Shown: positions 32,637-53,322 of the stretch, one piece after another
How positions within the stretch are numbered: the first letter of the stretch is position 1
How the letters are laid out: every line of letters starts with the position of its first letter
Source: Robinsoniella sp.
GTDB lineage: Bacteria; Bacillota; Clostridia; Lachnospirales; Lachnospiraceae
NCBI GenBank assembly: GCA_023664735.1
Contig: JAMPFB010000004.1
Coordinates: 2,316 to 66,315, forward strand
DNA: 64,000 nt
Direction: 5' to 3'
Program-made: the position numbers and the translations under genes
The notes under the pieces: generated by a model
What the model was told of the DNA's origin: nothing
What the model saw: the letters and a program-made list of their open reading frames with translations, nothing else
The model's database searches: none

Positions 32637-33416
32637 TTATATTTGTTTTCTCAAGTCATCTAATTCCTCATAGATGGCATCGTTTATAACCTTGATGTAG
32701 GTGCCCTTCATGCCGGAAGACCTAGATTCTATCACTCCTGCACTTTCAAACTTCCTAAGGGCATTTACAATGACCGAACGGGTAATCCCTACCCGGTCCG
32801 CAATCTTGCTTGCCACCAATATCCCTTCCATCCCATTCAGCTCGTCAAATATATGTACGATTGCTTCCATTTCTGATAAGGATAAGGTATGGATGGCGGA
32901 TTTTACTACTGCCTGCTTCCTGCTTTCCTCTGCATTTTCTTCATTGACCGCCCGGAGCATCTCCAAGCTGACTACCGTCGCCCCGTACTCACATAAAATA
33001 ATATCGTCTATGTCGTAGGTTTCCTCTTCATTATAAATAAATAAAGTTCCAAGCCTTTCTCCCGCAATGTCAATAGGAGTAATGACGCCCTGAAAACGTT
33101 TGGTATCCGTGGTCTCAAAGCCAAGAGTCTCCAGATTGACGTTTTCTTTTGTGGAAAGCACAGATAGAAACCTTTCATTTAAAGCACTGTCTATGAAATC
33201 TCCCACTTGCCCCTTTAAAAGCTCCGTAATCACTTCCACGCTTCCATAATTGGCCAGTCCCAAAACCTTGCCCTTCTTACTGATTACAAGTACATTGGAT
33301 TCTAATATCTCCTTTAATACTGTACATATATCGGTAAAGACCACCTTACTGGAGCTATTATTGTGCAGCAGCTTTCCAATCTTTCTCGTTTTATCCAATA
33401 ACTGTACACTGCTCAT
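32637..33416 (-). CDS. codY: GTP/BCAA-sensing global regulator CodY
   Basis: MSSVQLLDKTRKIGKLLH..., GAF-like N-terminal domain, and a C-terminal wHTH ASKIADRVGITRSVIVNALRKFESAGVIESRS. Start trimmed to ATG 33416 (GGAGGA RBS). Confidence 0.9.
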   Translation of the reverse strand: MSSVQLLDKTRKIGKLLHNNSSSKVVFTDICTVLKEILESNVLVISKKGKVLGLANYGSVEVITELLKGQVGDFIDSALNERFLSVLSTKENVNLETLGFETTDTKRFQGVITPIDIAGERLGTLFIYNEEETYDIDDIILCEYGATVVSLEMLRAVNEENAEESRKQAVVKSAIHTLSLSEMEAIVHIFDELNGMEGILVASKIADRVGITRSVIVNALRKFESAGVIESRSSGMKGTYIKVINDAIYEELDDLRKQI

Positions 33417-33489
33417 CGCTTCCTCCGTAATCCCATACTCAATAGAATAAGTTATATGCCACGTCATTGCTATTGTTATTGCTATTGAT

Positions 33490-33518
33490 ATGTTACCACA
33501 ATTTCTTGGGAACTGCAA
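33490..33518 (-). promoter_or_regulatory. Candidate codY promoter
   Basis: The minus strand reads TTGCAG-17 nt-TAACAT with TGg immediately upstream of the -10 (extended -10). Confidence 0.35.
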
Positions 33519-33519
33519 G

Positions 33520-33534
33520 AATTTTCAGATAATT
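33520..33534. promoter_or_regulatory. CodY-box-like palindrome
   Basis: AATTTTCAGATAATT matches the CodY consensus AATTTTCWGAAAATT at 14 of 15 positions. It directly abuts the candidate -35 of codY. Confidence 0.5.
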
Positions 33535-33545
33535 GGATAAGATTG

Positions 33546-33609
33546 GTGGGTGGGGAAAGCAGGGGGGGAAACTTGGGTTGGAAAATCGGGGGGGTTGGAA
33601 AATCGGGAC
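33546..33609 (+). repeat. G-rich tract with two G7 homopolymers and a duplicated TTGGAAAATCGGG unit
   Basis: GGTGGGTGGGGAAAGCAGGGGGGGAAACTTGGGTTGGAAAATCGGGGGGGTTGGAAAATCGGGAC. G7 runs at 33562-33568 and 33588-33594. Confidence 0.8.
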
Positions 33610-33756
33610 GTGGGAGCAGGGCTCTTAGATAGAAGTCTTATGGGCGCGCTCTCGCTCTATGAAAACGCAGCGGTACTAACGCACCAAAGTACGGTGCGTA
33701 AGGACCGGCGTTTTCATAAGGCCCTTAAGACTTCTATCTAAGAGCCCTGCTCCCAC
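33610..33756. repeat. Long hairpin element A (147 nt)
   Basis: Outer stem 33610-33645 pairs with 33721-33756 at 35 of 36 positions. Inner stems are CTATGAAAACGC/GCGTTTTCATAAG and ACGCACC/GGTGCGT. Confidence 0.85.
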
Positions 33757-33804
33757 TGGGTGTCGGATGCTTTTTGGGTGTGATTTCTGGGTGTATGCTT
33801 TCCG

Positions 33805-33956
33805 GATTCGCTTTCCGAATGTGGTTGCTGGATATGCTTTCCGATTCGCTTTCCAAGTATGGCTGCTGGATATACTTTCCAATTCGCTTTCCAAGTATGG
33901 CTGCTGGATATGCTTTCAGATTCGCCTTCCAAATGTGGCTGCTGGATATGCTTTCC
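33805..33956. repeat. Tandem direct repeat, 4 x 38 bp, with degenerate partial copies at 33757-33804
   Basis: Unit GATTCGCTTTCCAAGTATGGCTGCTGGATATGCTTTCC at 33805, 33843, 33881 and 33919, with a few substitutions per copy. Confidence 0.9.
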
Positions 33957-33977
33957 CAATAGGGGTGCCGATACACA

Positions 33978-34125
33978 GTGAGAGCCGGTGCAGCATAGGA
34001 TAGTCTTCTGGGCCTTGGTAAAGGCGCCGGTCCTTACGCACCGTACTTTGGTGCGTTAGTACCGCTGCGTCTTTGCAGAGCGAGAGCGTGCCCAGAAGAC
34101 TATCCTATGCTGCGCCAGCTCTCAC
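33978..34125. repeat. Long hairpin element B (148 nt), an inverted diverged copy of element A
   Basis: Outer stem 33978-34013 pairs with 34090-34125 (34 Watson-Crick pairs, 1 G-T, 1 mismatch). Core 34025-34069 is the exact reverse complement of 33666-33710. Confidence 0.85.
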
Positions 34126-34153
34126 GTCCCTCCTCCAACACCTCCCCACACGT

Positions 34154-36244
34154 TTACAATTGCAGCTCCTTTTCTTCTTTCTTTGCCGCTTCCACATACC
34201 CGCACCCCTCACCTGAGCAGACCAGCTTATTTCCTTTTTCTAAAAGGACGGAGCCGCATTTGGGGCACATTTCCCTGCTGGGTTTTTGCCATACCATGAA
34301 ATCGCAGTCTGGGTTGTTTTCGCAGCCGAAATATCTTCTTCCTTTTTTGGTCTTTTTTAAAACTACTTCTCCGCCGCACTTGGGACAGGGGACTCCGATT
34401 TTTTCTAGGTAGGGCTTGGTGTTCCTGCAGTCCGGGAAACCGGGGCAGGCAAGGAATTTGCCGTGGGGACCGTACTTGATTACCATTTGTCTGCCACAAA
34501 GGTCGCAGACTTGGTCGGATACTTCGTCTTCGATTTTTATGGATTCCAGTTCTTTTTCTGCTAAATTGACCGCCTCGTCCAAATCTGGGTAGAAATTCGC
34601 CACAATGACCTTCCAGTTTATAGTTCCTTCTTCTACCTTATCTAAAAGGGACTCCATATTTGCTGTGAAGTTTACGTCCACGATGCTGCCAAAGGCATCC
34701 TTCATAATGGAGTTTACCGCTTCCCCAAGCTCGGTAACATATAAATTTTTCTCTTCCTTTATAATGTAACGCCTTCCTAAAATAGTGCCGATGGTGGGGG
34801 CATAGGTGCTTGGGCGTCCGATGCCAAGCTCTTCTAATGTACGCACAAGGGAAGCCTCCGTATAGTGGGCAGGCGGCTGGGTGAAATGCTGTCTTGGCTC
34901 AAAGCCCTCCAATTGAAGCTTTGTATCTGTATCTAATGATTTTGCAAGTAAGCTGCCTTCCTTTTTCTCCTCATCCGCTTCCGTATATACGCTCATAAAT
35001 CCATCAAATACGATTTTGGAAGCAGCTACGGTAAAACGATAATCCCCTGCATCTATTTTTACGGAGGTAGTCTCATAAAGGGCAGGCTTCATGCAGCTTG
35101 CAGTAAACCGTTTCCAAATCAACTGATATAACCGGAATAAATCCCGGCTTAAGGAGTCCTTGATTTCCAATGGAGTCCGGGAAATATCTGTAGGGCGGAT
35201 TGCCTCGTGGGCATCCTGTATTTTCCCTTGGGATTTCTTGCTGTTTTCCGCTTCCTCTGCATATTGGCCGCCATATGCCTTCGCAATATATTCTTTTGCA
35301 TTCTGCTTTGCTTCTTGGGAAACCCTTGTAGAATCTGTACGGAGATAGGTAATCAGGCCTACCGTGCCGCTTCCTTTGATTTCCACTCCTTCGTACAATT
35401 GCTGGGCAAGCCTCATAGTCTTTGAGGTGGAAAAATTCAATGCCTTGCTTGCCTCCTGCTGCAAGGTAGAAGTAGTAAAGGGCATTGGCGCTTTTTTGCT
35501 CCTTTCCCCTTTCTTTACGGAATGAACCTGAAACTCGGCTCCTTTCAGCTTCTCTAAAACCTGATCCAACTCCCCTTTGGAGGAAATGGACAGCTTTTCT
35601 TCCTTTGTGCCGTAAAATTTTGCCTGTAACGGCTTTTTTTCTCCGGGTATCTTCAAATTGGCATCTAATGTCCAATACTCTTCCGGAATAAAAGCATTGA
35701 TTTCCTCTTCCCGGTCGCAGATAATCCGGAGAGCCACGGACTGGACACGCCCTGCGCTAAGCCCTCTTTTTACCTTTGCCCATAAAAGAGGGGAAATCCG
35801 ATAGCCCACCATTCGGTCAAGCACTCTTCTTGCCTGCTGGGCATCTACCAAGTCCATATTGATTTCCCTTGCATGCTTTAAGGATTCCTTTACCGCATTT
35901 TTAGTGATTTCATTAAAGGTAATCCGGTAGACCTTTTTATCTTCTAACTTCAGCGCTTTTAACAAATGCCATGATATTGCTTCTCCTTCCCGGTCCGGGT
36001 CCGTTGCCAGATAAATCTTTTCCGCCTTTTTTACTTCCTTTCTTAAAGAAGCAAGGATATCCCCTTTTCCCCGTATGGTGATATACTTTGGCTCATAATC
36101 ATTTTCCACATCAATACCCATCCGGCTTTTGGGCAAATCCCGCACATGTCCGTTGCTGGCAAGCACTTCATAATTTGTTCCTAAAAACTTCTTAATGGTC
36201 TTTACCTTTGCAGGTGATTCCACAATTACTAAATATTTTGCCAT
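34154..36244 (-). CDS. topA: DNA topoisomerase I
   Basis: AKYLVIVESPAKVKTIKKFLG Toprim N-terminus, active-site region ITYLRTDS, and C-terminal Cys4 zinc ribbons (CDLCGRQM...CPGFPDC, CPKCGG...C). Start trimmed to ATG 36244. Confidence 0.95.
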   Translation of the reverse strand: MAKYLVIVESPAKVKTIKKFLGTNYEVLASNGHVRDLPKSRMGIDVENDYEPKYITIRGKGDILASLRKEVKKAEKIYLATDPDREGEAISWHLLKALKLEDKKVYRITFNEITKNAVKESLKHAREINMDLVDAQQARRVLDRMVGYRISPLLWAKVKRGLSAGRVQSVALRIICDREEEINAFIPEEYWTLDANLKIPGEKKPLQAKFYGTKEEKLSISSKGELDQVLEKLKGAEFQVHSVKKGERSKKAPMPFTTSTLQQEASKALNFSTSKTMRLAQQLYEGVEIKGSGTVGLITYLRTDSTRVSQEAKQNAKEYIAKAYGGQYAEEAENSKKSQGKIQDAHEAIRPTDISRTPLEIKDSLSRDLFRLYQLIWKRFTASCMKPALYETTSVKIDAGDYRFTVAASKIVFDGFMSVYTEADEEKKEGSLLAKSLDTDTKLQLEGFEPRQHFTQPPAHYTEASLVRTLEELGIGRPSTYAPTIGTILGRRYIIKEEKNLYVTELGEAVNSIMKDAFGSIVDVNFTANMESLLDKVEEGTINWKVIVANFYPDLDEAVNLAEKELESIKIEDEVSDQVCDLCGRQMVIKYGPHGKFLACPGFPDCRNTKPYLEKIGVPCPKCGGEVVLKKTKKGRRYFGCENNPDCDFMVWQKPSREMCPKCGSVLLEKGNKLVCSGEGCGYVEAAKKEEKELQL

Positions 36245-36380: not shown

Positions 36381-39300
36381 TTAATCTAGTTTCAATAAAT
36401 CCATCTTTGTAACACCTAAAACTGCATAAGACTTACCGGACGTGCTAGCATTTACATCACCGGTTATAGATACGCTTTCAATCGTAGTCTCTGCTTCCAC
36501 ATAAAGCTTAAAGTCAACGTTTGTTTTCAGTAAATCCATAGGAAGCTTCAAGCCATACATAACACCGGCTGTAGCATCGGTACCATAAGCATAAGATTGA
36601 CCCTGAGCAAAGTCAGCCGGATAAAATGGCATCCTCAATTCTACCACCGTAACAGCCTGACCATTATCCAGTGTGATAGTCTGTGAACCAGCCGTGCCAT
36701 CAGACACTTCCCTCCAGAATTTAAGCTGGATTTTCTTTGAACCTTTTACCAGATTCGGATCTGATACGCAGAACCATACTTTGGTTGCATTTGCATCCGA
36801 TACCGATACAAATGGGTACTGGTATTTTGTATTGTCCGCTTTATCTATCAGAATAGAAGATTCTGCCTTATTCGTATCGCTGGCATTATAACCAACATTT
36901 TCGTCATATGGTACTACCACATTGCTGATAGCAGAACTGTTCAAATCACTTCCATCATAGATGCTTACGGCAGGCTTTTTGATTCCCGCCCGATATGCAG
37001 CAACCAATGTATTGATGAACAATTGTGCTTCGTATTTATTTTGCGGACTTACTAGATTGCTATGACCGCTTCCGGTATAAGTAACATTACCACTGTTAAA
37101 AATATAATAATTGTTGACTCCATCCTTTGGCGATATATTGTATACGCCATCAGCAAGCTTTGTGTTATTAGTTTCATCAGCTATATTGTCTCCATGTCCA
37201 TAAGCCAGCGTGTACCAAATGGTAATATCCGCCGTTCCATCCTGATCCTGATCCGCCTCCATATTCGGCTGGAAGTACTGCCCATGGGTTCTATTTACCG
37301 CAAATGAATCCGGCAGCTTGTAAGGATAATTTGTAATCTGTCCATCATTTACCTTATCAATAACAACAAGATAATCCTGATTGCTATTTGCTGCTGGTGG
37401 ATGTCCCCAATCATACATATCCGGGGACAACAGTGGAAAATAATCATTGCCTGTAGCTCTCTTGTTTGTATTACCACTCTTATCCTTATAAAATTTCATC
37501 AAAAAGTAATTGGTTAAACCCTGTGTCTCGCCTAGCAACGTCCTCTTATTGCTGCCCGGCTGGTACGCAACACGCCTTCCAGAGCCTTCAATCGCTGCAA
37601 TTGCAGCCGCATTGCCTGAATGCGATTTTGAATAGCTTGTTCCTTGTTTCAAATAGTTTCCAAGTTCTCCTGAAGTAAGACCATATCGATCCATCCCAAG
37701 CTTATCCCGCAATGTTTTTACAACTTTATAAGAGGGATAATGCTCCAAAAAGTCATGGGCAAGCAATACCGGTCTTCCGCTTGCAACATAATTAGCAATA
37801 GCATCCGTTGCTGTTTGAGCTATAAAATCATTTCCTTGTGTGTCCTTGTAGTTATCTCCAAATCCTAACACAAGCATATCAAAATCCTCCAATGCCTCAT
37901 AATAGCGCACCTCTTCTATTGTGGTCCCATTGGCATCTTTCCTAGGATACAAGTTGTTAACATATTGCGTCTGATTTATTGTGGTTATATCCAGCTTAAA
38001 CATGCCTAAAGATTCCAACTGGTTGATATACGCACCATACAAACCATGCTTATACTGTAAGGACAATGTACTTCCATTGTCTCCCTCGCCTCCCTCGTTG
38101 CCATTCAAAGTAATCTGCAGTATTTTGATAGTAGCTGCCGATGCTCCTCTTATGGCAGAATATCCTGTTTCACTGGCGGAAACATTGGGGGTAAGACTCT
38201 TTTGCACCTTCAAGCACCATGGAAGAACTCCCTGAAAGCCATCCGGCACCTCACGCCTTAACCGATACAATACATTCGTAGACAGCTTATAAGAACTCCC
38301 CCGGATGTCAGTGGTATGTACTACCTCCTCATTTGTCAGTGCATTGGTAACAACTGCCCCTTCCAGCTCTTCTGTTTCAGAAAACTTACCGTCTGCATTA
38401 ACATCCACATATAGCTTAGGCGTATATAAATCCGAATCTGTGCTATTTATAGAAAAGTTCTGCAAGGTAAATTCAAATTCTAAATAATATTTGCCATCTG
38501 AGCTTGCTGCAAGGTACTTTGGGGATGTAAGCGCACCATTCGTCAGTTCCACATATTCATACTCCGTAGGCCTTGCTGTAACATTCATAGACAGCTTTGC
38601 CGCATTAACCGCATGAGCCATCTTTTCTTTAAAGTTCGCTGCGGTAACCGGATTTCCAGCTGCCTCCAAGGCATCTGCTTCCGAAATGAAATTATCATAC
38701 CCACTACTGCTATAACTTCCTATGCTCTCCAAATTCCCACTATTCCCTGTTGCTATCTGGAAGAGCTCATACATCTCAGAACAGTTATCAATCCTTCCAT
38801 GGTCAATCCCAGTGATACCTGTATCCGTCAGAGAGCTGCCAGTGTTTATGGTTGGATTGATTATGCGATTATCGCTATCATCCGTCTTTAACATATCGCC
38901 TGCAACAATAATCGGATAGCCATTCTCTAGGAAATCCAGCAATTCTTTCTTTTTATAAACAGTCAAATCTCTCGCTGAAAAACGTGTTTCTCCACTTGTC
39001 TGCCTTTCACGGTTACCTTCAAAATATCCCCATAGCTTCTGTCCACCCCAACCAGAAGGCAGCGCCTCGCTATAATAAGTAATGTCCCCAATATTAAAAT
39101 ATACCATGCCATCCATCAGATTATCCCTGAAATCGGTAATATACTCCGGTGTATCAGCACTTTTGCCCACATCATCCTTTGCTTTGACAGTCTTATAATT
39201 TCCTGTAGTACCCCTATCATATGTGTCATAAGCAGGATTTCGAGAATGGTTTGAGCCGATATAAATAATGTCATAATCCTCACTAACGTTACCATTGATA

Positions 39301-41474
39301 CAGATAAACTCTTCAATCGTCATGCTCGTAAACATTACCCGGTCAATATTTTGTCCCTCTATATCGCCATTATCCTTAACGAAAGGCGCACCTAAATAGG
39401 TCTTAACAAACTCCTCCCTGTTTGCACAGCACTCATTTGCATACCGATTTCCACTATTCTTCACATCCGTATAGCTCTGGGTACCCCAGCCAATATTATA
39501 GGAAAAGTCCCTGCATGGCTCAATTTCCAATACCCGAAGGTCATTTTTTACCAGCTCGGAAGCCGTGCCATCATATGTCAGAATATATTGAACCACGACA
39601 GCAGGCGTTATACGCTCATTCATGGGCTCCGTAGGATTGCTGGCATTATTGGCTCTTACCATATATTCCACTCTGGAAAGTCCTGCCGCTATTACCGTTT
39701 CCGTATATTTGGAATTGAAGTCACCGTTTCCAAAGAAGTCATATGCATCCACCTGTGCCTTTGGAACATCGAAATAGCTAAGTCTATGCTCATATACGTA
39801 TACGCTCCCTGCCACAAAGTTGCTGCTACGCTTAAAAAACTCCTGACTGGCAAGATAATGCCATGTTATATTGCTTACGCTTCCATAAGAGAGAATGCTT
39901 AACTCCCCATTGCTTGCAATGTCAACATCAAACCCATTATTTGCCTCGCCGGACGCCTCATTTCCGGATATTGTGTCCGTCAAAACAGCCGTCTGGTTCT
40001 CCTGCCATAAAAGCAGAGCCAGCTTTTCCATATTGGACAGGCTTCCTACCGCTGCCTTATCTGCAATCAAGCCTGTATCAATCAGGGCATAGTCCATAAT
40101 CACTGCCTTATAATCCGTGCTGATTACTGCATTGTACAGCTCCATTACCTGAGAGTCGGAAAAATCCTTCCCATTATTCAGATAGGTTTCATTGCTTCCT
40201 GAAACATAGATCAAATCATAATCTTTCATGTCGTTACTGATTTCATCCGGAGTCTTTGTCTCTATAATTATATTAATATTGATATTCTTATCCCCAAATA
40301 CCAGCTCCTTAAACCAGCTGCCATTATGGAAGTAATTATTTGAATTATTATTATAATAAACATTCTTCGTCGTATAGCCAAAATATTTTCCAGCAGAGCT
40401 TTCAGAAAACTTCACATTTCCTGTGCCGTTCCCCACATAAGTAATGCCTTCCGGCAAAGCCTTGTTAAACCGGTCGCCTTCTTCTACCGGCGCATAGCTT
40501 CCATCATAAGCTCCCACGCCCTGAAAATATCGCTCTCCATAGCCTTCCTGCGAAGGAGCGACCCAGGAGCCTCCCTCTATATCCTGAAGCATATTCCCAT
40601 CGGTCGAATTCTCTGTTTCTCCGGATTCTGCCGGATTCTGCGGAGATTCTTCCTTAGGGGTTTCATTGCCCTGCCCTTCCTTTTCCTCTGCAGGCTCTTC
40701 CTCTTCATCCTCGACCGTAACAGTCACTTCCTCCTGTTCGTTCACTACCGGCACATCCTGACCGGGTGTTTCCTCCGTTACCCCTTCCGTATTGGAGATG
40801 ACAGAAAGAGCTCTGGTCAATGCCCCACCGCCGATGCTATTATTGCTTACCGGGGGATTATTTCCGCTGACAACGCCTGTCATGGCATTGATTGTTCCGG
40901 ACACATCAATGAAATAGCCATCCTGCAGCATATAATCCCCTGACATGCTGGAATCATTTTCATATACACCATATACCAGCTGCCTGCCTGCCTCTACATA
41001 TCCCGTCATGGCATAGCTGGCAAAGGTTGCAGCATCAGAATAAACCGGATTGTCAGATACATGCCCGGCGCTATTTCCATAATCAGCGCCATAATCCTTA
41101 ATCAGACCATAGTCACGCATCATCAGCAAATTGGAAACACCTTCCGCTGCTAAAAAGCTTCCGATGGATTTTGCTTTGGAAACCTCCATAAAATCCCGAT
41201 TGCCGCTTCCATCCTCCATAAAATATCCGATTTCCTCATTCTCATGAAGGGTATGCTCCGGCACCACCTCCAAAATCCTGAAAGTATCACCGCTTTTGTA
41301 TTTATCTGACACCTTCTGCAAAACCTTCGTACTTGCCTCTACCTGTGCAGTAGCCTTTTTTGCCACAAAGGTGCAAATGGCAATGGCAACAGCCAATACA
41401 GCTGCGGTACTCAATATTCTAATAATCAGCTTCTTTTTTCCTTTTTCCATATTCTCTCTCCATTGCATTTGCAT
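36381..41474 (-). CDS. Giant (about 1690 aa) exported non-pilin protein, last gene of the pilus operon; candidate pilus-associated adhesin
   Basis: An N-terminal K-rich segment is followed by one hydrophobic segment (LIIRILSTAAVLAVAIAICTFVA), with no prepilin G-F-x-L-x-E motif and no LPXTG. It has an acidic linker, a three-fold recurring pattern (FRILEVVP / LRVLEIEP / IKILQITL, each followed by DYDLIYVSGS / DYDIIYIGS / DFDMLVLGFG), and the DVNADGKFSETE and DQDQDGTAD calcium-loop motifs. Alternative starts at 41468 and 41450. Confidence 0.7.
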   Translation of the reverse strand: MQMQWRENMEKGKKKLIIRILSTAAVLAVAIAICTFVAKKATAQVEASTKVLQKVSDKYKSGDTFRILEVVPEHTLHENEEIGYFMEDGSGNRDFMEVSKAKSIGSFLAAEGVSNLLMMRDYGLIKDYGADYGNSAGHVSDNPVYSDAATFASYAMTGYVEAGRQLVYGVYENDSSMSGDYMLQDGYFIDVSGTINAMTGVVSGNNPPVSNNSIGGGALTRALSVISNTEGVTEETPGQDVPVVNEQEEVTVTVEDEEEEPAEEKEGQGNETPKEESPQNPAESGETENSTDGNMLQDIEGGSWVAPSQEGYGERYFQGVGAYDGSYAPVEEGDRFNKALPEGITYVGNGTGNVKFSESSAGKYFGYTTKNVYYNNNSNNYFHNGSWFKELVFGDKNININIIIETKTPDEISNDMKDYDLIYVSGSNETYLNNGKDFSDSQVMELYNAVISTDYKAVIMDYALIDTGLIADKAAVGSLSNMEKLALLLWQENQTAVLTDTISGNEASGEANNGFDVDIASNGELSILSYGSVSNITWHYLASQEFFKRSSNFVAGSVYVYEHRLSYFDVPKAQVDAYDFFGNGDFNSKYTETVIAAGLSRVEYMVRANNASNPTEPMNERITPAVVVQYILTYDGTASELVKNDLRVLEIEPCRDFSYNIGWGTQSYTDVKNSGNRYANECCANREEFVKTYLGAPFVKDNGDIEGQNIDRVMFTSMTIEEFICINGNVSEDYDIIYIGSNHSRNPAYDTYDRGTTGNYKTVKAKDDVGKSADTPEYITDFRDNLMDGMVYFNIGDITYYSEALPSGWGGQKLWGYFEGNRERQTSGETRFSARDLTVYKKKELLDFLENGYPIIVAGDMLKTDDSDNRIINPTINTGSSLTDTGITGIDHGRIDNCSEMYELFQIATGNSGNLESIGSYSSSGYDNFISEADALEAAGNPVTAANFKEKMAHAVNAAKLSMNVTARPTEYEYVELTNGALTSPKYLAASSDGKYYLEFEFTLQNFSINSTDSDLYTPKLYVDVNADGKFSETEELEGAVVTNALTNEEVVHTTDIRGSSYKLSTNVLYRLRREVPDGFQGVLPWCLKVQKSLTPNVSASETGYSAIRGASAATIKILQITLNGNEGGEGDNGSTLSLQYKHGLYGAYINQLESLGMFKLDITTINQTQYVNNLYPRKDANGTTIEEVRYYEALEDFDMLVLGFGDNYKDTQGNDFIAQTATDAIANYVASGRPVLLAHDFLEHYPSYKVVKTLRDKLGMDRYGLTSGELGNYLKQGTSYSKSHSGNAAAIAAIEGSGRRVAYQPGSNKRTLLGETQGLTNYFLMKFYKDKSGNTNKRATGNDYFPLLSPDMYDWGHPPAANSNQDYLVVIDKVNDGQITNYPYKLPDSFAVNRTHGQYFQPNMEADQDQDGTADITIWYTLAYGHGDNIADETNNTKLADGVYNISPKDGVNNYYIFNSGNVTYTGSGHSNLVSPQNKYEAQLFINTLVAAYRAGIKKPAVSIYDGSDLNSSAISNVVVPYDENVGYNASDTNKAESSILIDKADNTKYQYPFVSVSDANATKVWFCVSDPNLVKGSKKIQLKFWREVSDGTAGSQTITLDNGQAVTVVELRMPFYPADFAQGQSYAYGTDATAGVMYGLKLPMDLLKTNVDFKLYVEAETTIESVSITGDVNASTSGKSYAVLGVTKMDLLKLD

Positions 41475-41514
41475 TCACCTGTTCCTATTAGTTATTGCTA
41501 TTTTCTGCTATTTG

Positions 41515-43794
41515 CTATCTATTGTTCCTTCTCCAGTAATGATATGTGGAATCATATACATAACCCAGTCCGTTATATTCCATTTCAAGATTACCGTTTC
41601 TTACCCTTAGTTTTATATTCAGGTTTCCTGTAGGTGTGGAAACTGTCCTGGTTTGATATTTCTTACCAAGACCGTCTCGTCCCTGCTCAGGAATATAAGC
41701 AGTAACTCCTTCCACATTTGCCACATACACCGTATATTGTACATAAGAATCCGCAGCCTTATTTGAGATTACATAATAATCATCCAGTGCAAGCGTCAAG
41801 GTAATTGGCGCCTCCGGATACTCCCTTGTGTTACTTGCTGCCGTCAGCCTGAACTTAGCCTCCGTCACTCCTTTATCCCTTGTTCCAAGCAGGCTCTTGC
41901 CATTTTCTGTAGTCACCATCCTGCAGGACAGGTATTTGTTGGCTCCGCTGCTACTGCCGCCTACCTGAGTGCCATCCATAAACATACTCATCTGGGAAGA
42001 CTTTGTAATATTAAAGCCTAAAGTGGAAAGCGTAATATCCGAAGTAGTTCCTTTCCTGATGACAAGCACATTATCAGTAGGTCCAACCTTTAGCACCTGC
42101 ACCGCCGGAAGCGTAATCGTAGTGGTTCTGCTGTCAGTGCCTGTAGGTGTAGTAAAGTCAACCTTAAGTCCAATTTGCAGTCCCTGATAAAAACGGGCTT
42201 TTCTTGTAAAATCTCCATCATGATAAGCATCATAATCCACATATAAGACATAATTGTTATCAAAGTAAACGAAGTCGCTGAAATTTCCCGTATAATCCGG
42301 CACATTCGTTACTTCAATCTTGTCAATGCTGATTACAGAAGTAACATCTCCTGCAATCTCCGTAGGATTTACCATATAATAGGACTTCAAATCCATATTG
42401 ACGCCTCTTAAGAACTGGATATCCGATGTCAATATCGAATCCGCTATGTAAAAGACATATTCACCCTTCACTGTATTATCAAAAACAGAGGTCGCTTCTA
42501 CTTTAAAGCGATAGGCGGAATTTATATTGTTTCTTAAAAGCACCGTATTGCCATTCATAGCAGCTTCCGTAATGCTGTTGGCCTCCTGCCAGTTTCCTGC
42601 AAAATTGCCAGAGCCGTCTTTTATATCCTTGTATATTTTCCATGTAACCTGCTCATTTCCCTCTAAGTTCCAACCATCCACATTTGCGTTGAAAGTGATG
42701 GTAGCATTCTTTGTGGATACAGGCTGCCCCATATCATTATTACGCAGCGGCGTATAGGGATTTACCCATACTCCCAATGCTTTTACTACCTTAATCGTTG
42801 TATAGCCTATTTTTGTAGGATCCTCTCTGGAAGTAGAAATTACCCGAAAGGATTTTACAGTAGGATCCGGAATAGGCGTTATAGTATGCTGCCTTAGCGA
42901 AATCCGGTTTGGATCTGCCGGATCTGGGACTATATCTACGCCTGTCGCATCAGGGTCAGAGGAAAGCGACCAATCCACCGCTGTATCAGCGCTGCCTGTG
43001 CTCACTACTTTTGCATAAATATAAGGATTGCTGTCAGGATCAGTCCACTTTATATCTAATGGCTGATTTGCCTTTACCTCCATCCTAATGGTGGCAGGGT
43101 CATTCTTAAGAGAAACAATGCTATCCGCCGCCGGTCTTTCGGGAGTTGCATCGCTTCCCTCCTCTACATCCTTATTGCGCATGTGCACCTGATAATTTCC
43201 CGTATAGTCCCTGTTCCTTAAAGCATAAGTCAAATCAAATTCCAATATCTTGTCGCTTGTAAGCTTATCAGTATTTACAGTAAAATCCTGTACGTTATCC
43301 GCCAGCATTTCCGCATCCTCTGGATCAAAGCCGTTCCAATCATCACTTGCGCTGTCCCATGTGGTTTCATTAAAATAAATCACATTTCTAGCCTGATCAA
43401 AAAAGATAATCGACTTTGTCTGGCTGCTATTATTGATAAGCTGCAATATTTTAGCATTATTTAATACAATCAAATCAGCAGGATCACTGGAATATGTAGG
43501 ATAATAGCTTACATTAAACGAAACAGGAAGCCCGGTTGTAACATCTATGGAACCATCATAAAACTTCAGCTGCGTCTCACAGTCAATAACCCTGTCGGTA
43601 ATCGCATTGGCTGTAAACTGCGCCGCCTCCTGAACATCCGTTTCCGCACTGCTATGATTGTAGGTATTAGAGCTCTGCTGGACAAATGCCACCAACGATG
43701 CGCCCACAATGGACACAATCATAACCGCAACAAGCAGTTCAACTAATGAAAATCCGCTATTCTCCTGTAATAATTTTCTTTGAACATTCTTCAT
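41515..43794 (-). CDS. Very large minor-pilin-like protein (about 760 aa) with a class III prepilin signal
   Basis: MKNVQRKLLQENSG/FSLVELLVAVMIVSIV is a prepilin cleavage/methylation motif with Glu5. ATG 43794 (AGGTG RBS) is preferred over the TTG at 43827. Confidence 0.8.
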   Translation of the reverse strand: MKNVQRKLLQENSGFSLVELLVAVMIVSIVGASLVAFVQQSSNTYNHSSAETDVQEAAQFTANAITDRVIDCETQLKFYDGSIDVTTGLPVSFNVSYYPTYSSDPADLIVLNNAKILQLINNSSQTKSIIFFDQARNVIYFNETTWDSASDDWNGFDPEDAEMLADNVQDFTVNTDKLTSDKILEFDLTYALRNRDYTGNYQVHMRNKDVEEGSDATPERPAADSIVSLKNDPATIRMEVKANQPLDIKWTDPDSNPYIYAKVVSTGSADTAVDWSLSSDPDATGVDIVPDPADPNRISLRQHTITPIPDPTVKSFRVISTSREDPTKIGYTTIKVVKALGVWVNPYTPLRNNDMGQPVSTKNATITFNANVDGWNLEGNEQVTWKIYKDIKDGSGNFAGNWQEANSITEAAMNGNTVLLRNNINSAYRFKVEATSVFDNTVKGEYVFYIADSILTSDIQFLRGVNMDLKSYYMVNPTEIAGDVTSVISIDKIEVTNVPDYTGNFSDFVYFDNNYVLYVDYDAYHDGDFTRKARFYQGLQIGLKVDFTTPTGTDSRTTTITLPAVQVLKVGPTDNVLVIRKGTTSDITLSTLGFNITKSSQMSMFMDGTQVGGSSSGANKYLSCRMVTTENGKSLLGTRDKGVTEAKFRLTAASNTREYPEAPITLTLALDDYYVISNKAADSYVQYTVYVANVEGVTAYIPEQGRDGLGKKYQTRTVSTPTGNLNIKLRVRNGNLEMEYNGLGYVYDSTYHYWRRNNR

Positions 43795-43807
43795 ACTATT
43801 CACCTGC

Positions 43808-44374
43808 TTACCGCCCTTTTCGCACAACCTTACCTGTTTTCTTCATCAACTTAAGCTCATATTGCCTGCTTCCGCCTAATATATAGATTTCTTCTATGTA
43901 TTTTCCGTCCTTATAAGGAAGAAAGGCTCCCGTAGAACGGTCATAGGAAAACATAATGCCATTGCCTTCTCCTCCGACCAATTCCTCATCTGTAAGACCT
44001 GCCCCCTTGCAGATCATGGTAACGCCTCTTCCGGCTATCTTGTTTCCTTTCTCTTCTTTTGCTACACCCATCACATAAGTCTTGGCATAAATAGAATTAT
44101 CATACTTATAAAATTCAATATATACCCCGTCATTTTGTATATCCGTATTCACTCCCCCAAAAGTATCCTTTACGGAAACGGTTTTGGTAAGCTTTGAATG
44201 GGCAAGCACCTGTACTTTTTCTGTTGTAAGGGTATTGACCACCTTTTTATAGGCCTCCTGCGCCCTGTAGCTAAAGAGCACATCGCTTTTAATAACGCCA
44301 AAAGTAATCACTATTCCCATTACTGCCATTATTACAATTAGCTCGATTAAAGAAAACCCCTTATTCTCTTTCAT
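43808..44374 (-). CDS. Minor pilin (188 aa) with a prepilin signal
   Basis: MKENKG/FSLIELIVIMAVMGIV, the canonical G-F-x-L-I-E motif. Confidence 0.8.
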   Translation of the reverse strand: MKENKGFSLIELIVIMAVMGIVITFGVIKSDVLFSYRAQEAYKKVVNTLTTEKVQVLAHSKLTKTVSVKDTFGGVNTDIQNDGVYIEFYKYDNSIYAKTYVMGVAKEEKGNKIAGRGVTMICKGAGLTDEELVGGEGNGIMFSYDRSTGAFLPYKDGKYIEEIYILGGSRQYELKLMKKTGKVVRKGR

Positions 44375-44382
44375 ACCATCAC

Positions 44383-46905
44383 CTACTTTTTATTCCAGTT
44401 TTCGTAGTAAATCAAATCCGCAAGCTCCATATATCCATACTCGTTAGACGGTGTCGTATTCGTATCATTTGCCGCTGTATAATTTAAATAAGAAGCGCCG
44501 TCAATCAGAATATCTGCTGCAAAATGTCCGTTCACAAGATCGTTTTGATCCCTGCAGCTCATTGCCGCTTTTACCTTATCCGGAACTGCAATAAAGCTGT
44601 CACAGCTTGGTTCAACGGTAATTGTTCCTCTTGCAAGGATTACGCCTTTAAATTCCCTTGCCGTAACTCTTACATCTCCGCTGGCAACAACAAAGTAAAG
44701 CTTGTCGGCATTGGAATCTGTAATTTCAAAAGGACTGCCATTATAATTATTCACTATCATTGCATTGACTTCGTCTGCCGGGTCTACGCCTGTTCCGCTG
44801 TTCGTACATATCATAGTTGTCCCTGCCGGAACAATATCGCCAAACTGCTCAGTGCCTGATGCCACATCGTCTCCAAATGCATCGTCGCCTAAAACAATAT
44901 TTTCATATGCCGTGCGCAGGGAACCATCCACCGGATTAGTCAGTTCTGAGCTCGCTACATTTTCTATATTTAAAAGCAGCTTTGCAAATAAAGCCTGATG
45001 GCTGTCTTTAATTACATCTATGCTGGAATTTAAGCTTGCTATGTTATTTAAGTCTTCCGTTTTCGTGTCTCTCTTCAAAACTGCATTGCCAGTACCATTA
45101 TTATCAAAATAAACCAGATTTCCCGCAATATGTAAAGGAGAATTTACTACGCCGCTTGCATTCCTTGTACCCAAGGCTTCATTCCAGCTGAATTCTGCCA
45201 CATATTTTTTGATATATGCATCCAAAGCCTCTTTATCCGCAGCATAATAGTCACTGAAAAACTCATTTGCCATGGATTCTGAATTAAAATATAAGTAATA
45301 ATATACCATAACAGTGCCATCCACCCGCCGGTAAACCGGACGGTATGATGCACCATATGCATTAACTGATTTTCCAAGCTTTTCAAACACCTTATCCAGA
45401 CGCACTACCGAATATTTTAAAAGCGCATTTCCTGCCGCATCCGTTATCGTAGCGCCCGAAGCATCCGTCTGCACAGTGGTGGTAAGCATAGTATGCTCCG
45501 CTATAGTCATTGGGTTCTTTGGCAATACCTGTACATTTCCTTCATATCCCATGCATTCCTCAGGCACCATATACATCATCTGATCGCCTTTTACTGCAAC
45601 AGACTGGCCTAACATAAAATCACTGCTATTTAAATAGGGATCGGAAGGATCCGGACTGGGATTGATAGTATCCACATAATCAGACCCGGAAGCAACATTT
45701 GCATCATAATGCCTTGCTCCTACGAAAGCATGACCCATCAGCATCAGGTTATTAAGCTGCGACATATCCAGCGTTGTATTTGCCCCATTAATCAATATGG
45801 AGCTACTGTCCTCTGCCTGAACGCTGCCGCTTCCATAACCATAGTACTCCCCACCCAGAGTAATCCGGGAATTTCTTCCTTCTATCGTCAAATCGTCCTT
45901 GACATATGTTTTGTCCTGCAGGGAAACATTATTGGCGCTGAACACATCAATCGCTTCTGTCCAAAGCTGGGTCCCCGGCAAGGTAGTAAGGCCCGAACCG
46001 GCGCCATCTTTTCCAACTGTAACCTGCTTTGCTATATATTTACGTTCCTGCCCCGTTGTTTCATCTCCTACACGCAGACTCCGCCTATTATCTATAATCG
46101 TGCCAATCTTGCCGCCGCCATACACGCTTCCATTGATGGTGGTCTGAGTATTCCCATTCTTTACCTCCAGCAGCTCATTGGCAATCAGGCAGTAATTTTC
46201 AATATCAGGCATTTGTTTAGTAGATACAAAGCTTACTGTCGGTATCTTGATTACGATATCTGTGGTAAGCATGGACACATATCCTCTCAAATCCCGATAT
46301 TGCAAGGATACGTTTTTCAAAATCAGCATATCACCATTGCCAGGTTGATATGCAACTTCAGTATTGCCGATTCTTGTGTTCAGCGCTGGTATAAGATCCG
46401 GATCTGAGCCATCCTGCTTCGTAAGAACCAAAGCCCCAACATCCTTAGAGGAATCATATCTTGTTTTATCCAAATAGAGAGTCAGCTTATCCACCCTGTA
46501 TAACTGTGAATTTGTACCAGAACTGCCGGGCTGTTTATATCGAAGCTTCTCCCATAATGATTTATAAAAGCTCGTTTTGAATTCATCTTCCTTTTGCTGC
46601 ACAGAAAGATTGGATTGCCTACTGACTGCCGTGTAGCATTCTGCCATCGAAAGGGAAATTTCTCTCTGCAGTCCTACATTAATTTCATCCAGGGCAGTCT
46701 CCACCGTGTAAAAACTATTCTTTGCACTTCTATCGTTGTATTTCATATAGAAGTTGTAATAAGACGCATATACGCTGATGGATACCAGCACTCCTACAAA
46801 GGAAACCATAATAATAACCATTATTAAGGAAGAGCCTTCGTTCTGATACCGTTTCTTTCTAATTGCTTCTAATACCCCTGAAATTTTGTGAAACATAGAA
46901 AACAT
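44383..46905 (-). CDS. Large PilX/GspK-like pseudopilin-type protein (840 aa) lacking Glu5
   Basis: The N-terminus ...RYQNEG/SSLIMVIIMVSFVGVLVSI resembles PilX/GspK-type N-terminal helices, which lack the conserved Glu5. The gene is embedded among the minor pilin genes. Confidence 0.65.
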   Translation of the reverse strand: MFSMFHKISGVLEAIRKKRYQNEGSSLIMVIIMVSFVGVLVSISVYASYYNFYMKYNDRSAKNSFYTVETALDEINVGLQREISLSMAECYTAVSRQSNLSVQQKEDEFKTSFYKSLWEKLRYKQPGSSGTNSQLYRVDKLTLYLDKTRYDSSKDVGALVLTKQDGSDPDLIPALNTRIGNTEVAYQPGNGDMLILKNVSLQYRDLRGYVSMLTTDIVIKIPTVSFVSTKQMPDIENYCLIANELLEVKNGNTQTTINGSVYGGGKIGTIIDNRRSLRVGDETTGQERKYIAKQVTVGKDGAGSGLTTLPGTQLWTEAIDVFSANNVSLQDKTYVKDDLTIEGRNSRITLGGEYYGYGSGSVQAEDSSSILINGANTTLDMSQLNNLMLMGHAFVGARHYDANVASGSDYVDTINPSPDPSDPYLNSSDFMLGQSVAVKGDQMMYMVPEECMGYEGNVQVLPKNPMTIAEHTMLTTTVQTDASGATITDAAGNALLKYSVVRLDKVFEKLGKSVNAYGASYRPVYRRVDGTVMVYYYLYFNSESMANEFFSDYYAADKEALDAYIKKYVAEFSWNEALGTRNASGVVNSPLHIAGNLVYFDNNGTGNAVLKRDTKTEDLNNIASLNSSIDVIKDSHQALFAKLLLNIENVASSELTNPVDGSLRTAYENIVLGDDAFGDDVASGTEQFGDIVPAGTTMICTNSGTGVDPADEVNAMIVNNYNGSPFEITDSNADKLYFVVASGDVRVTAREFKGVILARGTITVEPSCDSFIAVPDKVKAAMSCRDQNDLVNGHFAADILIDGASYLNYTAANDTNTTPSNEYGYMELADLIYYENWNKK

Positions 46906-46913
46906 TCCTTTCT

Positions 46914-48686
46914 TTAATTGCTGCCGCCTGTAAACTTTGCAATTCTTGCATCCTTATTAAAGTTCTCGCCTGCTTTGAAAACCTGTACTGTCACTTCATA
47001 TATATAATCTTCATCATTGGAGCCTGTAATCGTGTTGATGCCATCCAAGGCTCCAAATCTTAACCTCTGTTTTACATCACCCTCAGATACTAAAGCGCCA
47101 TTCACATAACAGCTTACCTTGCTGTTTGGATATAGATAATCCCCATCAAAACGCGCATCCGTTTCTAAATTATATCCTATATTGCTATATATATGTGTAT
47201 GTACATTTTCAAGCCTGTTTTCTTTTAAATTTTCATCCAGCTGAAGCGTCATTTTATAATTTGCCTCTTTGCTGGCAAGATCCACTACCGAATTGCCCAC
47301 CTGCCGAATCAGGAAGAAATTCATCTCTGTTCCCAAAATAGCACTTGTATTTGTATCTACATTGCCTGCAGTATTCACAATATGAATAACATCCCCTCTT
47401 CCAGCGGCCGTTCCACTGGAAGCATCATAATTAGGAAAATAATAGAAATAAAAATTTCTTGGACGGTTGGCAGCGCTTCGGAACACTTCCGTTTCCATCT
47501 CTTCAAATACTGCACTTGCGCCTGAATTTAAAAGGGAAGCATTCATCAATTCATACTTATACTGCACTGTTATAATCCTATAAGGATTGCTGGGATTTAC
47601 CGGATTTGCCTCCTGCCTAATGTTAATATACATCTCCCTCTTAAGATCCTTTAAAATCTGCTCGCTGGTAACACCGCCTTTACATCTGAGCAAATACTGG
47701 GTTACTGCCTCGCCTAAGTCGCCACTGTCTTCCGAAAAATAACGATCCGAAGTCGTATCGTCCACAGCTGCATTCGTACCAATGTTGGTGTTTATTCTGG
47801 ACAACATGGTATCATTATAAGCCCTCTTACCGGAATAAGCGCCGCCCGCACTTTCACTTCTGATTTGGCTTCCATCATCATTATAATTCGGCAGGACTTC
47901 TGTCGTATCAACAAGCCCGGTGTCCACATAATCACGATAGTAATTGGCATCCATGCTCAAAATCACATCATATTTTTTAGAACCATATTGTACATTCCTA
48001 AGCCAGAATGCATACGCATGTAAATCATCATCTTCATTTAATTTGTCATCCTTTAAATATGGCTTACCAAAATAAACCTCTTCCGTATCGCCCCATTTTG
48101 CCTTATAAGCATACTTCATGCTATAACTGCTGCGAGGGTTACGGGATTCCAAATTATTCCCCCCCGTATTATAACTGCAGTCATAAACTCCCTCTTCATA
48201 GCCGGAAATGGCAAGAAGCCTTCCATGGTCAATGGACAGATTGCTATAGTCATCCTGATATTTATCATCATCAGCATCTACATACTTTGGTATTTTTACT
48301 GTTTCCCCTAAAGTATTGGTATGAGTCCCAGGCTCACATTCAATGACACAGCGTCCCCAGTTTTCCACAGCCATGCTGCTTGGCATAAATTTCAGCCCAT
48401 TTTCAGGATCTGTATTGGTGGGAGTCTCTGTGGGATGGGCGCTGTCCCAACCAGCATCCCACACATGCTCCAGCTGTATTATCGTATTTTCCACACCATA
48501 GGCGCTAATGCCTTCCATAATATTCTGAGCCACAATCGTACCATTCATGGTAACCTTGGCTTTGGAATTTACTTTGGAGGAAGTAACAAAATTCGCCAGC
48601 ATGGGAACAACCGCAATTGCCAGAATCGATACGGCTATTAAAAGCTCTACCAAAGTAAATCCCTTATCATTCCTTTGCATTTTCAT
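46914..48686 (-). CDS. Large PilV-like minor pilin (590 aa)
   Basis: MKMQRNDKG/FTLVELLIAVSILAIAVVPML prepilin motif. First gene after pilO. Confidence 0.8.
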   Translation of the reverse strand: MKMQRNDKGFTLVELLIAVSILAIAVVPMLANFVTSSKVNSKAKVTMNGTIVAQNIMEGISAYGVENTIIQLEHVWDAGWDSAHPTETPTNTDPENGLKFMPSSMAVENWGRCVIECEPGTHTNTLGETVKIPKYVDADDDKYQDDYSNLSIDHGRLLAISGYEEGVYDCSYNTGGNNLESRNPRSSYSMKYAYKAKWGDTEEVYFGKPYLKDDKLNEDDDLHAYAFWLRNVQYGSKKYDVILSMDANYYRDYVDTGLVDTTEVLPNYNDDGSQIRSESAGGAYSGKRAYNDTMLSRINTNIGTNAAVDDTTSDRYFSEDSGDLGEAVTQYLLRCKGGVTSEQILKDLKREMYINIRQEANPVNPSNPYRIITVQYKYELMNASLLNSGASAVFEEMETEVFRSAANRPRNFYFYYFPNYDASSGTAAGRGDVIHIVNTAGNVDTNTSAILGTEMNFFLIRQVGNSVVDLASKEANYKMTLQLDENLKENRLENVHTHIYSNIGYNLETDARFDGDYLYPNSKVSCYVNGALVSEGDVKQRLRFGALDGINTITGSNDEDYIYEVTVQVFKAGENFNKDARIAKFTGGSN

Positions 48687-48734
48687 TACATTTCCTCCAT
48701 TTCCTTACTGCCTTTATTGTTTTACTGCTCTTTT

Positions 48735-49580
48735 TTACTGCTCATCCTCTGACTGGTCGTTATTTTCCGTCTCTGTGCTTTCTGCATTGGCATCAAAGGT
48801 ATTGTTCTCCCTGCCTACATTTAATGTTTCGGATGATTTAAACAGATTATCCGTACCTATGCCAATTCCCTGAATGCTCGGCGCTTCATAAATTCTATCC
48901 GTTCCGGTAAGGCTGAACATATTCACTATAATGGAGCCTGTAAGGTTTCCTGTGCTTTCATCATAGCTTAAAGTAACGTTATCAATGGATTTTTTATTTT
49001 CCCTGTCAGTTAAAATTTCTTTAATCCACTCCTTAGCTGCCGTATAGGTCAGTTTAAAATTAAATGTAATTGGCGCCCTATATAAAGCAATCGTAGTTGC
49101 TGCTGAAGCAACCGGAGCCGCCTGCTCTGCCTGAGCCGCTCCTGCATTTTCCGTTCCTTCTGCTGCTTCCCCTGTTCCATCATCTACCACTTCCGGCTGC
49201 GCCTCTGCTGTCACCGGCTGCGCAATTGCAACAGCCTCTGCAACCGGCATGTCGATTGCCGTTGCTAAAACATCATATTTATTTTCCATGTTGTATGCGT
49301 AATAGATTTCATCTTCCGGATGCAGTTCAGAAGGGAACTGTGCCTTGATTTCTTCCATTTCCGCATTCATCCTGTCCGTCTCTGCAAGATAAAACTCTTT
49401 ATTATCCATCAGTTCCTGTAAATATGCCACTTCCTGAGCCAGAGACTGATTCTCTGCCACCAGTACATCCGTCTGCTCATTCAGGCTTACAAATACAAAG
49501 AAGTAAACTAACAGTGGAATAGCAATTCCTATTAAGCCAAGTATTATATTTTTTTCTCTTTCTCCTATTTTAAGCTTCAT
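48735..49580 (-). CDS. pilO: PilO-like pilus alignment protein
   Basis: 281 aa. N-terminal TM segment, then a coiled coil (LVAENQSLAQEVAYLQELM). It follows the pilM-N fusion, and the C-terminal tail is acidic. Confidence 0.65.
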   Translation of the reverse strand: MKLKIGEREKNIILGLIGIAIPLLVYFFVFVSLNEQTDVLVAENQSLAQEVAYLQELMDNKEFYLAETDRMNAEMEEIKAQFPSELHPEDEIYYAYNMENKYDVLATAIDMPVAEAVAIAQPVTAEAQPEVVDDGTGEAAEGTENAGAAQAEQAAPVASAATTIALYRAPITFNFKLTYTAAKEWIKEILTDRENKKSIDNVTLSYDESTGNLTGSIIVNMFSLTGTDRIYEAPSIQGIGIGTDNLFKSSETLNVGRENNTFDANAESTETENNDQSEDEQ

Positions 49581-49591
49581 GCCTCTACCCC

Positions 49592-51415: not shown

Positions 51416-51537
51416 GATTTACCTCCCTGAAAAAATGCAGGACAGCTCCCCCATTTTTTTATTTTTCTTTTTTCCTTGCATTTTCATACTGCTTTATGCT
51501 TCTAATTCCTTATGTATCCTATCAAGTCCGTTAACCG

Positions 51538-53310: not shown

Positions 53311-53322
53311 AGCCTTTCCCTC

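Follow-up and report, generated by a model that had tools for sequence, protein, structure and literature searches.

The 64,000-nucleotide (nt) stretch of a Robinsoniella sp. genome analyzed here, called the window throughout (contig JAMPFB010000004.1 of assembly GCA_023664735.1), carries two long hairpins, A and B, in the spacer between topA and codY. They are two copies of a many-copy palindromic DNA repeat, probably a small non-autonomous mobile element. In our preferred reading, which we hold with modest confidence, they are the two palindromic modules of a single ~615-bp non-coding, non-autonomous repeat that resembles miniature inverted-repeat transposable elements (MITEs) and REPINs, is mobilized in trans and has its arms homogenized by template switching. 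The observations behind this reading are dispersal of the repeat in many copies, relatives that lack it at the same site, inverted motifs at its termini, stems that remain paired in situ, pairs that are Watson–Crick only, and an inverted core at one orthologous locus. Transposition, a single-stranded DNA intermediate and template switching would be the processes that produced these patterns.

Structure of hairpins A and B

Both hairpins had been noticed in a preliminary description made from the sequence alone, which assigned them 36-bp outer stems. A repeat search confirmed this, with 36-nt outer arms that are 97% complementary in A (33610–33645/33721–33756) and 94% complementary in B (33978–34013/34090–34125). 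Their cores (33634–33710 and 34025–34101) are inverted relative to each other and 92% identical over 77 nt. Alignment of A on the plus strand with B on the minus strand supported the proposed homology of the two as inverted copies: GGGACGTG precedes both and the CGCTCTCGCTCT box lies within both. The shared core of ~78 nt stood, and only the length of its perfect match had to be corrected, from 45 nt to 46 nt. The outer arms match at 22 of 36 positions, the same count as before. The parts of the insertion, in order, are as follows.

33541–33609, plus strand: left terminal G-rich region, with the terminal inverted motif at ~33575–33609, ending in GGGAC and enlarged by two 17-nt repeats GGGTTGGAAAATCGGGG
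33610–33756, plus strand: hairpin A, type 2 subfamily (..CTCTATGAAAACGC..), a 36-bp outer stem with a three-way-junction core inside
33665–33710, plus strand: the 46-nt core stretch of A identical to B, holding the apical hairpin ACGCACC-AAAGTAC-GGTGCGT, whose 22-mer recurs elsewhere
33757–33793, plus strand: 3'-terminal motif of A, CTGGGTGTCGGATGC, read as the local form of the family motif CTGKGTATCGAAAGGCC and trailed by degenerate reiterations
33794–33956, no strand assigned: tandem array of 38 nt × 4.3 with a sub-period of 13 nt, between the hairpins and absent from the preliminary description
33957–33977, minus strand: 3'-terminal motif of B, CTGTGTATCGGCACCCC
33978–34125, minus strand: hairpin B, type 1 subfamily (..CTCTGCAAAGACGC..), in opposite orientation to A, so that the 3' ends of A and B face each other
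34126–34150, minus strand: right terminal inverted motif GGGGAGGTGTTGGAGGAGGGAC, followed by the GTG of hairpin B

Folded as RNA, A and B reached −106.2 and −98.1 kcal/mol (z = −14.2 and −10.1), and none of 200 shuffles matched the stability of either. Folded as single-stranded DNA, the two strands of each hairpin were equally stable (−67.6/−66.0 kcal/mol for A, −59.0/−58.1 kcal/mol for B). A and B are the only copies within the window. Units of the 38-nt array resemble the 3'-terminal and linker motifs of the family (CTGCTGGATATGC / TTTCCGAT); the array itself matched no other family locus and is specific to this one.

A dispersed repeat family in gut Lachnospiraceae

The 22-mer of the apical hairpin, AACGCACCAAAGTACGGTGCGT, has exact matches in 60 stretches from nine metagenome-assembled genome (MAG) assemblies, eight of which are labeled Lachnospiraceae. 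Six Lachnospiraceae MAGs hold 18, 14, 12, 10, 5 and 1 of these matches, and divergent single copies occur at L054 and L063 (labeled Lachnospiraceae) and at L026 (labeled Muribaculum). An nhmmer profile built from 41 copies retrieved 79 sense copies in the 525 kb of element and flanking sequence fetched. The element is thus not confined to one locus, which is one of the conditions that the preliminary description had named together as telling against it. All copies are intergenic, lying between flanking long open reading frames (ORFs), and their orientation shows no bias relative to either the upstream gene (28 same, 32 opposite) or the downstream gene (26 and 25). Copies co-oriented with the upstream gene lie within ~10–115 nt of its stop codon, mostly at 20–60 nt. 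No conservation extends beyond ~40 nt upstream of the copies, and no conserved promoter was found among them. Recurrent neighbors belong to housekeeping families, including ABC ATPases, histidine kinases, flippases, PRPP synthetase and argC/argG.

The typical unit starts with a G-rich flank (GGGG.KTGGA..RG.GGACGY), present before nearly all copies. Its 5' arm then runs through RGGAGC, a variable stem (consensus TGGCAGAGCATATGGT, with 5–30 additional mirrored bp in some copies) and AGTCTTnnGGGC. An unpaired CACGCTYTCGCTCT, an inner stem and the invariant apical GGTACTAACGCACCAAAGTACGGTGCGTAAG(GA/TG)CC form the center, and the return arms lead to CTGKGTATCGAAAGGCC. Two subfamilies, type 1 (47 copies) and type 2 (30 copies), differ in the foot and in a triple covarying switch of the inner stem (GCAAAG..CTTTGC versus ATGAAR..TTCAT). 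Copies of a third form (L032, L048/L051, L058) are palindromes that are symmetric throughout, each arm measuring ~75 nt. Per-site diversity across the family is 0.05–0.12 in the ~80-nt apical core versus 0.33 in the outer stem. The core sequence is consequently the most conserved part of the element, which runs counter to the earlier proposal that selection acts on the hairpin rather than on the primary sequence.

Distant homologs in rumen and roe-deer MAGs (L054:~150–330 and L063:~400–600) share the apical core, have wholly different stems and occupy the secY–adk spacer of the ribosomal-protein operon, the L063 copy with an additional ~60-nt insert; the homolog at L026 likewise keeps the core on an unrelated stem. 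At L017:1516–1744 and L020:1881–2092, a small hairpin, CTTTTCCCCGATCTTGTATCGGGGACTTTCC, has been added in the 3' inner core.

Three further features were considered and rejected. A small ORF across the 5' arm and core (..WTRFRSAKTQRY*) has unconserved start codons and is shifted out of frame by 5-nt indels; an additional outer helix, TTTGGAT/ATCGAAA, shows a constant G·G mismatch and no covariation in the alignment; and a promoter within the core is ruled out, the core being GC-rich and the elements devoid of any sigma-70-like site.

Rfam 15 gave no match at the gathering threshold across the whole window. At E ≤ 10, the region 33400–34200 returned a single nonsense match to H19_3 (E = 1.6), and other hairpin copies gave only spurious sub-threshold matches to plant miRNA precursors. 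The preliminary description had recognized neither a known RNA family nor a known repeat class in the hairpins. The first point holds; the second does not, since the class is recognizable as that of MITE/REPIN-type dispersed palindromic repeats. Literature searches with the core sequence (full text) and for Lachnospiraceae MITEs yielded nothing relevant, and the family, from uncultured gut Lachnospiraceae, appears to be previously undescribed.

Insertion between topA and codY

The topA–codY spacer measures 737 nt in the window versus ~90 nt in four relatives (L003–L006) whose CodY is 84–87% identical. In these relatives the spacer reads TAA-ATTATCTGAAAATT, which contains the CodY box, with −35 and −10 elements after it. 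Because the CodY box and promoter of the relatives are kept at 33534–33490 in the window and their spacer is so short, the intervening ~615 bp (33535–34153) can be taken as an insertion, bounded by the following features.

33535–34153, no strand assigned: the whole insertion, ~615–619 bp, a single composite repeat element from the topA stop codon to the CodY box and codY promoter
33534–33520, minus strand: CodY box AATTATCTGAAAATT, retained just outside the insertion by comparison with L003–L005
33490–33534 region, minus strand: codY promoter predicted from consensus, with −35 TTGCAG at 33518–33513 and −10 TAACAT at 33495–33490
34154–36244, minus strand: topA (DNA topoisomerase I), the upstream gene
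32637–33416, minus strand: codY, followed by the flgB-flgC-fliE-fliF-fliG... flagellar operon

The A-side junction also occurs at L067, a relative with 97%-identical CodY from an independent sample, but with a much shorter G-rich flank: ~20 nt in L067:1–45 versus ~70 nt in the window (33541–33609, built of reiterated TTGGAAAATCGGG units). This difference in length implies that the terminal motif expands and contracts quickly. A second polymorphic site is provided by L047:1312–1505, a copy within a ~360-nt stretch that is replaced by ~30 nt in L028 and L064. With topA on one side of the insertion and codY and the flagellar operon on the other, read-through into a global regulator could be affected.

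Stem pairing and its DNA-level signature

Standard pairs make up 98.5% of the 2443 cells from 41 copies, versus 83.8% in column shuffles and 35–42% in slid controls, and double changes occur at 37 of 60 pairs (372 cells). Compensation of arm differences, first noted for A and B, is therefore general across the 41–79 copies compared. It also holds at homologous loci in relatives, where pairing is kept: between orthologous copies from different species-level MAGs, stem differences comprise 77 compensated doubles versus 20 singles. For L059 versus L062, the stem has eight doubles and no singles (~22% per pair) versus ~4% change in the core, and flanks differ by 9–22% across the orthologue comparisons. 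Stem divergence between orthologues equals or exceeds the flank rate.

In the outer stem of the 79 copies, with three junction columns set aside, 2239 of 2297 cells are Watson–Crick, 14 are G·T, 14 are A·C and 30 are other combinations, indicating no tolerance of wobble on either strand; real RNA helices usually contain several per cent G·U. Two core positions (columns 97/127 and 65/148) show G·U on the sense strand. Transversion doubles, which cannot pass through G·U, are frequent (e.g., GC:29/CG:10, UA:23/AU:14 and GC:17/UA:16). Indels of 5 nt and longer are mirrored in both arms, which leaves no conserved reading frame and agrees with the earlier remark that no ORF explains the elements. 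At L048:5380–5533 and L051:3362–3503, which are orthologous, the flanks and perfect 75-nt arms are identical and the asymmetric ~75-nt core between them is inverted.

Stems that drift about neutrally yet stay perfectly paired argue for arm-to-arm copying rather than classical two-step compensation. Template switching between inverted-repeat arms homogenizes arms, extends palindromes, inverts spacers and generates compensatory changes in one step (PMC8604942, PMC8794818, PMC7202029), and the doubles expected from quasipalindrome template-switch mutagenesis include transversions, alongside homogenized arms, palindrome extension and spacer inversion (PMC7202029, PMC8604942, PMC8794818, PMC5941160). 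The inverted core of L048/L051 is the spacer inversion expected of switching between inverted-repeat arms (PMC8604942), and the symmetric type 3 copies have the appearance of extended palindromes. Template switching is a mutational process rather than an element family, and we infer its operation here from the patterns. Taken together, the compensation points to copying of arms at the DNA level with no need for selection on structure. It had been read earlier as a sign of just such selection, an interpretation weakened by the Watson–Crick-only stems, the transversion doubles and the rate of stem divergence. What resembles textbook covariation (98.5% pairing, 37 covarying pairs) thus most likely reflects homogenization of DNA palindromes, and it calls for caution in covariation-based RNA discovery.

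Paired elements and TwoAYGGAY composites

Units occur in three arrangements: solo, as a tail-to-tail pair of type 1 and type 2 as in the window, or as a hairpin followed by a palindrome with a TwoAYGGAY core. Close pairs (<200 nt apart) were found at four independent loci, namely the window, the argC–argG spacer (L033/L059/L061/L062), L010 and L046. Each pair is convergent, so that its 3' ends face each other, and each joins a type 1 to a type 2 copy, against a random-pairing expectation of roughly 0.25^4 × 0.48^4; their arms are 94–100% complementary throughout.

About 18 of the 79 copies are followed, 30–250 nt downstream, by a co-oriented second palindrome of ~260 nt. Eight of the second-palindrome cores, tested at the gathering threshold, proved to be genuine TwoAYGGAY (RF01731), scoring 80–103 bits against a cutoff of 43. 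TwoAYGGAY palindromes lie beside hairpins at the following positions.

L018:2181–2480: TwoAYGGAY palindrome
L029:619–882: TwoAYGGAY palindrome
L047:3225–3487: TwoAYGGAY palindrome
L064:4906–5160: TwoAYGGAY palindrome
~14 further loci: TwoAYGGAY palindromes

Hairpin, linker and TwoAYGGAY align as a single ~505-nt unit across non-orthologous loci. The TwoAYGGAY palindrome has a covarying, Watson–Crick-only stem of ~70 bp, and on its 3' side stands GCGTCC-YYYY-CCAC-CCCC, which in reverse complement matches the G-rich flank of the first hairpin. It follows that these composites, like the A...B insertion in the window, are bounded by imperfect terminal inverted motifs of ~22–25 nt. The window insertion, the L059 pair and five hairpin–TwoAYGGAY composites each have such a motif, ending in GGACGY, at either end.

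TwoAYGGAY was judged "probably RNA" by its discoverers, who described its closing stem as "often very large" (PMC2864571), and CsrA binding was proposed for it in a later paper (PMC4333381). The window hairpins share with it the same genomes and an architecture in which a conserved core is closed by a very long, almost perfect stem. Their own core is distinct: A and B lack AYGGAY loops and do not match the RF01731 model, and TwoAYGGAY is absent from the window. In these genomes the motif is one module of a composite repeat delimited by inverted terminal motifs, a finding that changes how it is to be interpreted.

A mobile-element reading and its relation to known systems

In the mechanism that we propose, the element would spread in trans through a putative transposase recognizing the terminal motifs, the invariant core or both, perhaps where single-stranded DNA has folded into a hairpin. 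Once the element is in place, a new mutation in one arm would be copied into the other by template switching or hairpin-templated repair, such that the stem sequence could drift while the palindrome stayed perfectly Watson–Crick.

Measured against bacterial MITEs, the family is short (<~600 bp), non-coding and present in many copies per genome, one MAG having 18 or more exact matches to the core. It has terminal inverted repeats in the form of the imperfect G-rich motifs of ~22–25 nt, and it is polymorphic for insertion (the window versus L003–L006, and L047 versus L028/L064). Known bacterial MITEs and stem-loop repeats include Correia/NEMIS, ERIC, RUP, BOX and Bacillus bcr1. Like these, the present elements are small and non-coding, have inverted terminal motifs and many intergenic copies, vary in presence and build modular composites. 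They differ in that no target-site duplication was found, nor a parent insertion sequence in the window and the 525 kb of flanks, in that conservation is highest at the center rather than at the ends, and in stems that remain perfectly Watson–Crick while drifting.

REPINs are doublets of repetitive extragenic palindromic (REP) sequences that form hairpins and are mobilized by RAYT/TnpA-REP (PMC3116915, PMC8266576), and their hairpins also show compensatory changes (PMC3116915). The likeness lies in dispersed extragenic non-coding palindromes with long hairpins, in common two-sided compensatory changes, in the occurrence of singlets and higher-order clusters, and in the proposal of a single-stranded-DNA hairpin intermediate. 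The conservation pattern is reversed, however: a REPIN has two short conserved inverted REPs (~20–40 nt) around a variable spacer, whereas the window family has an invariant ~80-nt apical core and a variable stem. Its elements are also larger (150–620 bp), with asymmetric flanks, G-rich terminal motifs and a Firmicute host. No RAYT gene was seen in the 525 kb of flanks, and the neighbor families scanned there contain no transposase.

Several findings weigh against mobility. Searches of the window and of the 525 kb of flanks, including the sequence beside each copy and between paired copies, found no transposase gene, and where a regular-expression search of the flanks for a gene bracketed by terminal motifs gave matches, these were pairs of separate elements. 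The empty sites are only 84–90% related, and no target-site duplication could be delimited from them; the window junctions offer at most an ambiguous A/AA against diverged empty sites, and L047 versus L028/L064 gave no clean junction. Most copies are solo, and solo type 1 and type 2 copies have one full terminal motif only. Horizontal mobility is undocumented: blastn of the window insertion and of a hairpin–TwoAYGGAY composite against phages and plasmids gave no match, and a scan of JGI metagenome and IMG/VR viral contigs for the core gave none either. Even between orthologues the stems have diverged far more than the apical core, unlike a purely selfish element decaying in place, and such conservation of the core in situ requires either a function in situ or gene conversion from copy to copy. 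The frequency and constant orientation of the link to TwoAYGGAY, finally, argue for some role at the RNA level.

Alternative explanations

The last two points bear on the view that each copy is a structured RNA, expressed alone or in one transcript with a downstream TwoAYGGAY, as a multi-copy or mobile small RNA or a cis-acting module. We regard this as a serious but unlikely alternative. Its three-way-junction core would be a protein-binding or catalytic RNA, and its long stem a clamp or RNase III site. The very strong covariation backs a defined three-way-junction fold, and the core is near-invariant across species, being kept in L026, L054 and L063 despite entirely different stems. TwoAYGGAY is co-oriented downstream of ~18 of 79 copies, eight of them at 80–103 bits; the sense strand has G·U at columns 97/127 and 65/148; and copies occupy spacers that are transcribed, e.g., the argC 5' region (L059) and topA–codY. 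The outer stem, on the other hand, bears no strand-specific signature, with G·T and A·C equal at 14 each, and a perfect duplex of 36–75 bp is unusual among stable bacterial RNAs. Random orientation to genes leaves about half of the copies antisense, neither a conserved promoter nor a conserved terminator was found, the orientation of the core can change while its flanks stay as they are (L048 versus L051), and Rfam offers no match even at E ≤ 10.

Less probable still, and put forward as speculation, is a combination of both ideas in which the hairpin module and TwoAYGGAY constitute a modular, hairpin-cored mobile element whose invariant apical cores function as RNA or as single-stranded DNA. 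Were this true, protein-titrating RNAs with CsrA-type GGA sites would be spreading by transposition, and a GGA-rich array would here stand directly upstream of the codY–flagellar regulon; alternatively, the cores would be recognition hairpins for a novel single-stranded-DNA transposase. Either would give the orphan TwoAYGGAY motif its first biological context.

It seems improbable that the element is a domesticated cis-acting DNA or RNA site, whether bound by nucleoid, topoisomerase or regulatory proteins or serving as a transcription insulator or mRNA-end stabilizer, as proposed for REP/BIME. The core is indeed conserved in situ between orthologues while stems and flanks diverge, co-oriented copies sit within ~10–115 nt of the upstream stop codon (mostly 20–60 nt), and short motifs containing GGA recur both in the flanks and in the 38-nt array of the window. 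Yet placement follows no positional or orientation rule, close relatives do without the element at the same loci and show no visible compensation, and gene conversion among copies could equally explain the conservation.

An invertible DNA switch, in which a recombinase would flip the 314-bp segment between the 77-nt cores and thereby phase-vary codY and the flagellar operon, is very improbable: despite inverted repeats just upstream of codY–flgB and a core that has flipped between inverted arms at another locus (L048 versus L051), the same repeats occupy dozens of unrelated housekeeping loci, no recombinase gene was found nearby, the segment contains no promoter-like site and includes neither the codY promoter nor the CodY box, and recombination between the A and B cores would join non-complementary arms and break both hairpins, which the 94–100% complementarity at all four paired loci contradicts. 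The flgB switch of Clostridioides difficile is an inverton, that is, a phase-variable promoter. The window resembles it in having, upstream of a flagellar operon, a short segment between inverted repeats and in belonging to a family with one member seen in both core orientations, and differs in lacking an invertase and an internal promoter, in the dispersal of its repeats and in the damage that A–B inversion would do to the hairpins.

Genomic context and additional observations

Genes around the insertion all lie on the minus strand, in the order comM, dprA, type IV pilus cluster, topA, spacer, codY, flgB, flgC, fliE, fliF, fliG ... flhB, flhA ... cheA. The type IV pilus cluster (36381–56278), between dprA and topA, comprises pilB, pilC, a prepilin peptidase, PilM/N and several N-methyl pilins, and the same region includes a 1697-amino-acid (aa) DUF5057 protein. 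In L002, dprA immediately adjoins topA. Two "long CodY" proteins in ENA assemblies (P0001 and P0002; 415 and 389 aa), considered as a hint of related insertions at L002 and L068, have no hairpin element. The call at L002:3001–4248 stems from an internal partial codY duplication (a 113-nt direct repeat, 465 nt apart) and is probably an assembly artifact; the other is at L068:881–2050.

Copies stand at contig ends in L007, L031, L036, L043 and L044, and long poly-C runs adjoin copies at the contig ends of L014:~2135–2190 and L067:1–14. The contig-end copies suggest that these repeats break short-read assemblies.

Tandem arrays of short period (11–17 nt, or 2–3 times that) are found within 250 nt of elements; in raw counts, ~13 independent loci have them on the 3' side and ~7 on the 5' side. 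Their units differ from locus to locus, and several resemble the element 3' motif CTGKGTATCG. Examples are as follows.

Window 33794–33956: tandem array
L016:4155–4231: tandem array
L013:1012–1102: tandem array
L053:1108–1198: tandem array
L047:1131–1219: tandem array
L020:1589–1657: tandem array

At L059:5290–5400, and also in L033, L061 and L062, repeated TGCATAATTATGCA-type boxes and a promoter-like site, TTGCAT-N17-TATAAT, point into the two elements before argC, and the elements appear to be tolerated within the argC 5' leader at these loci.

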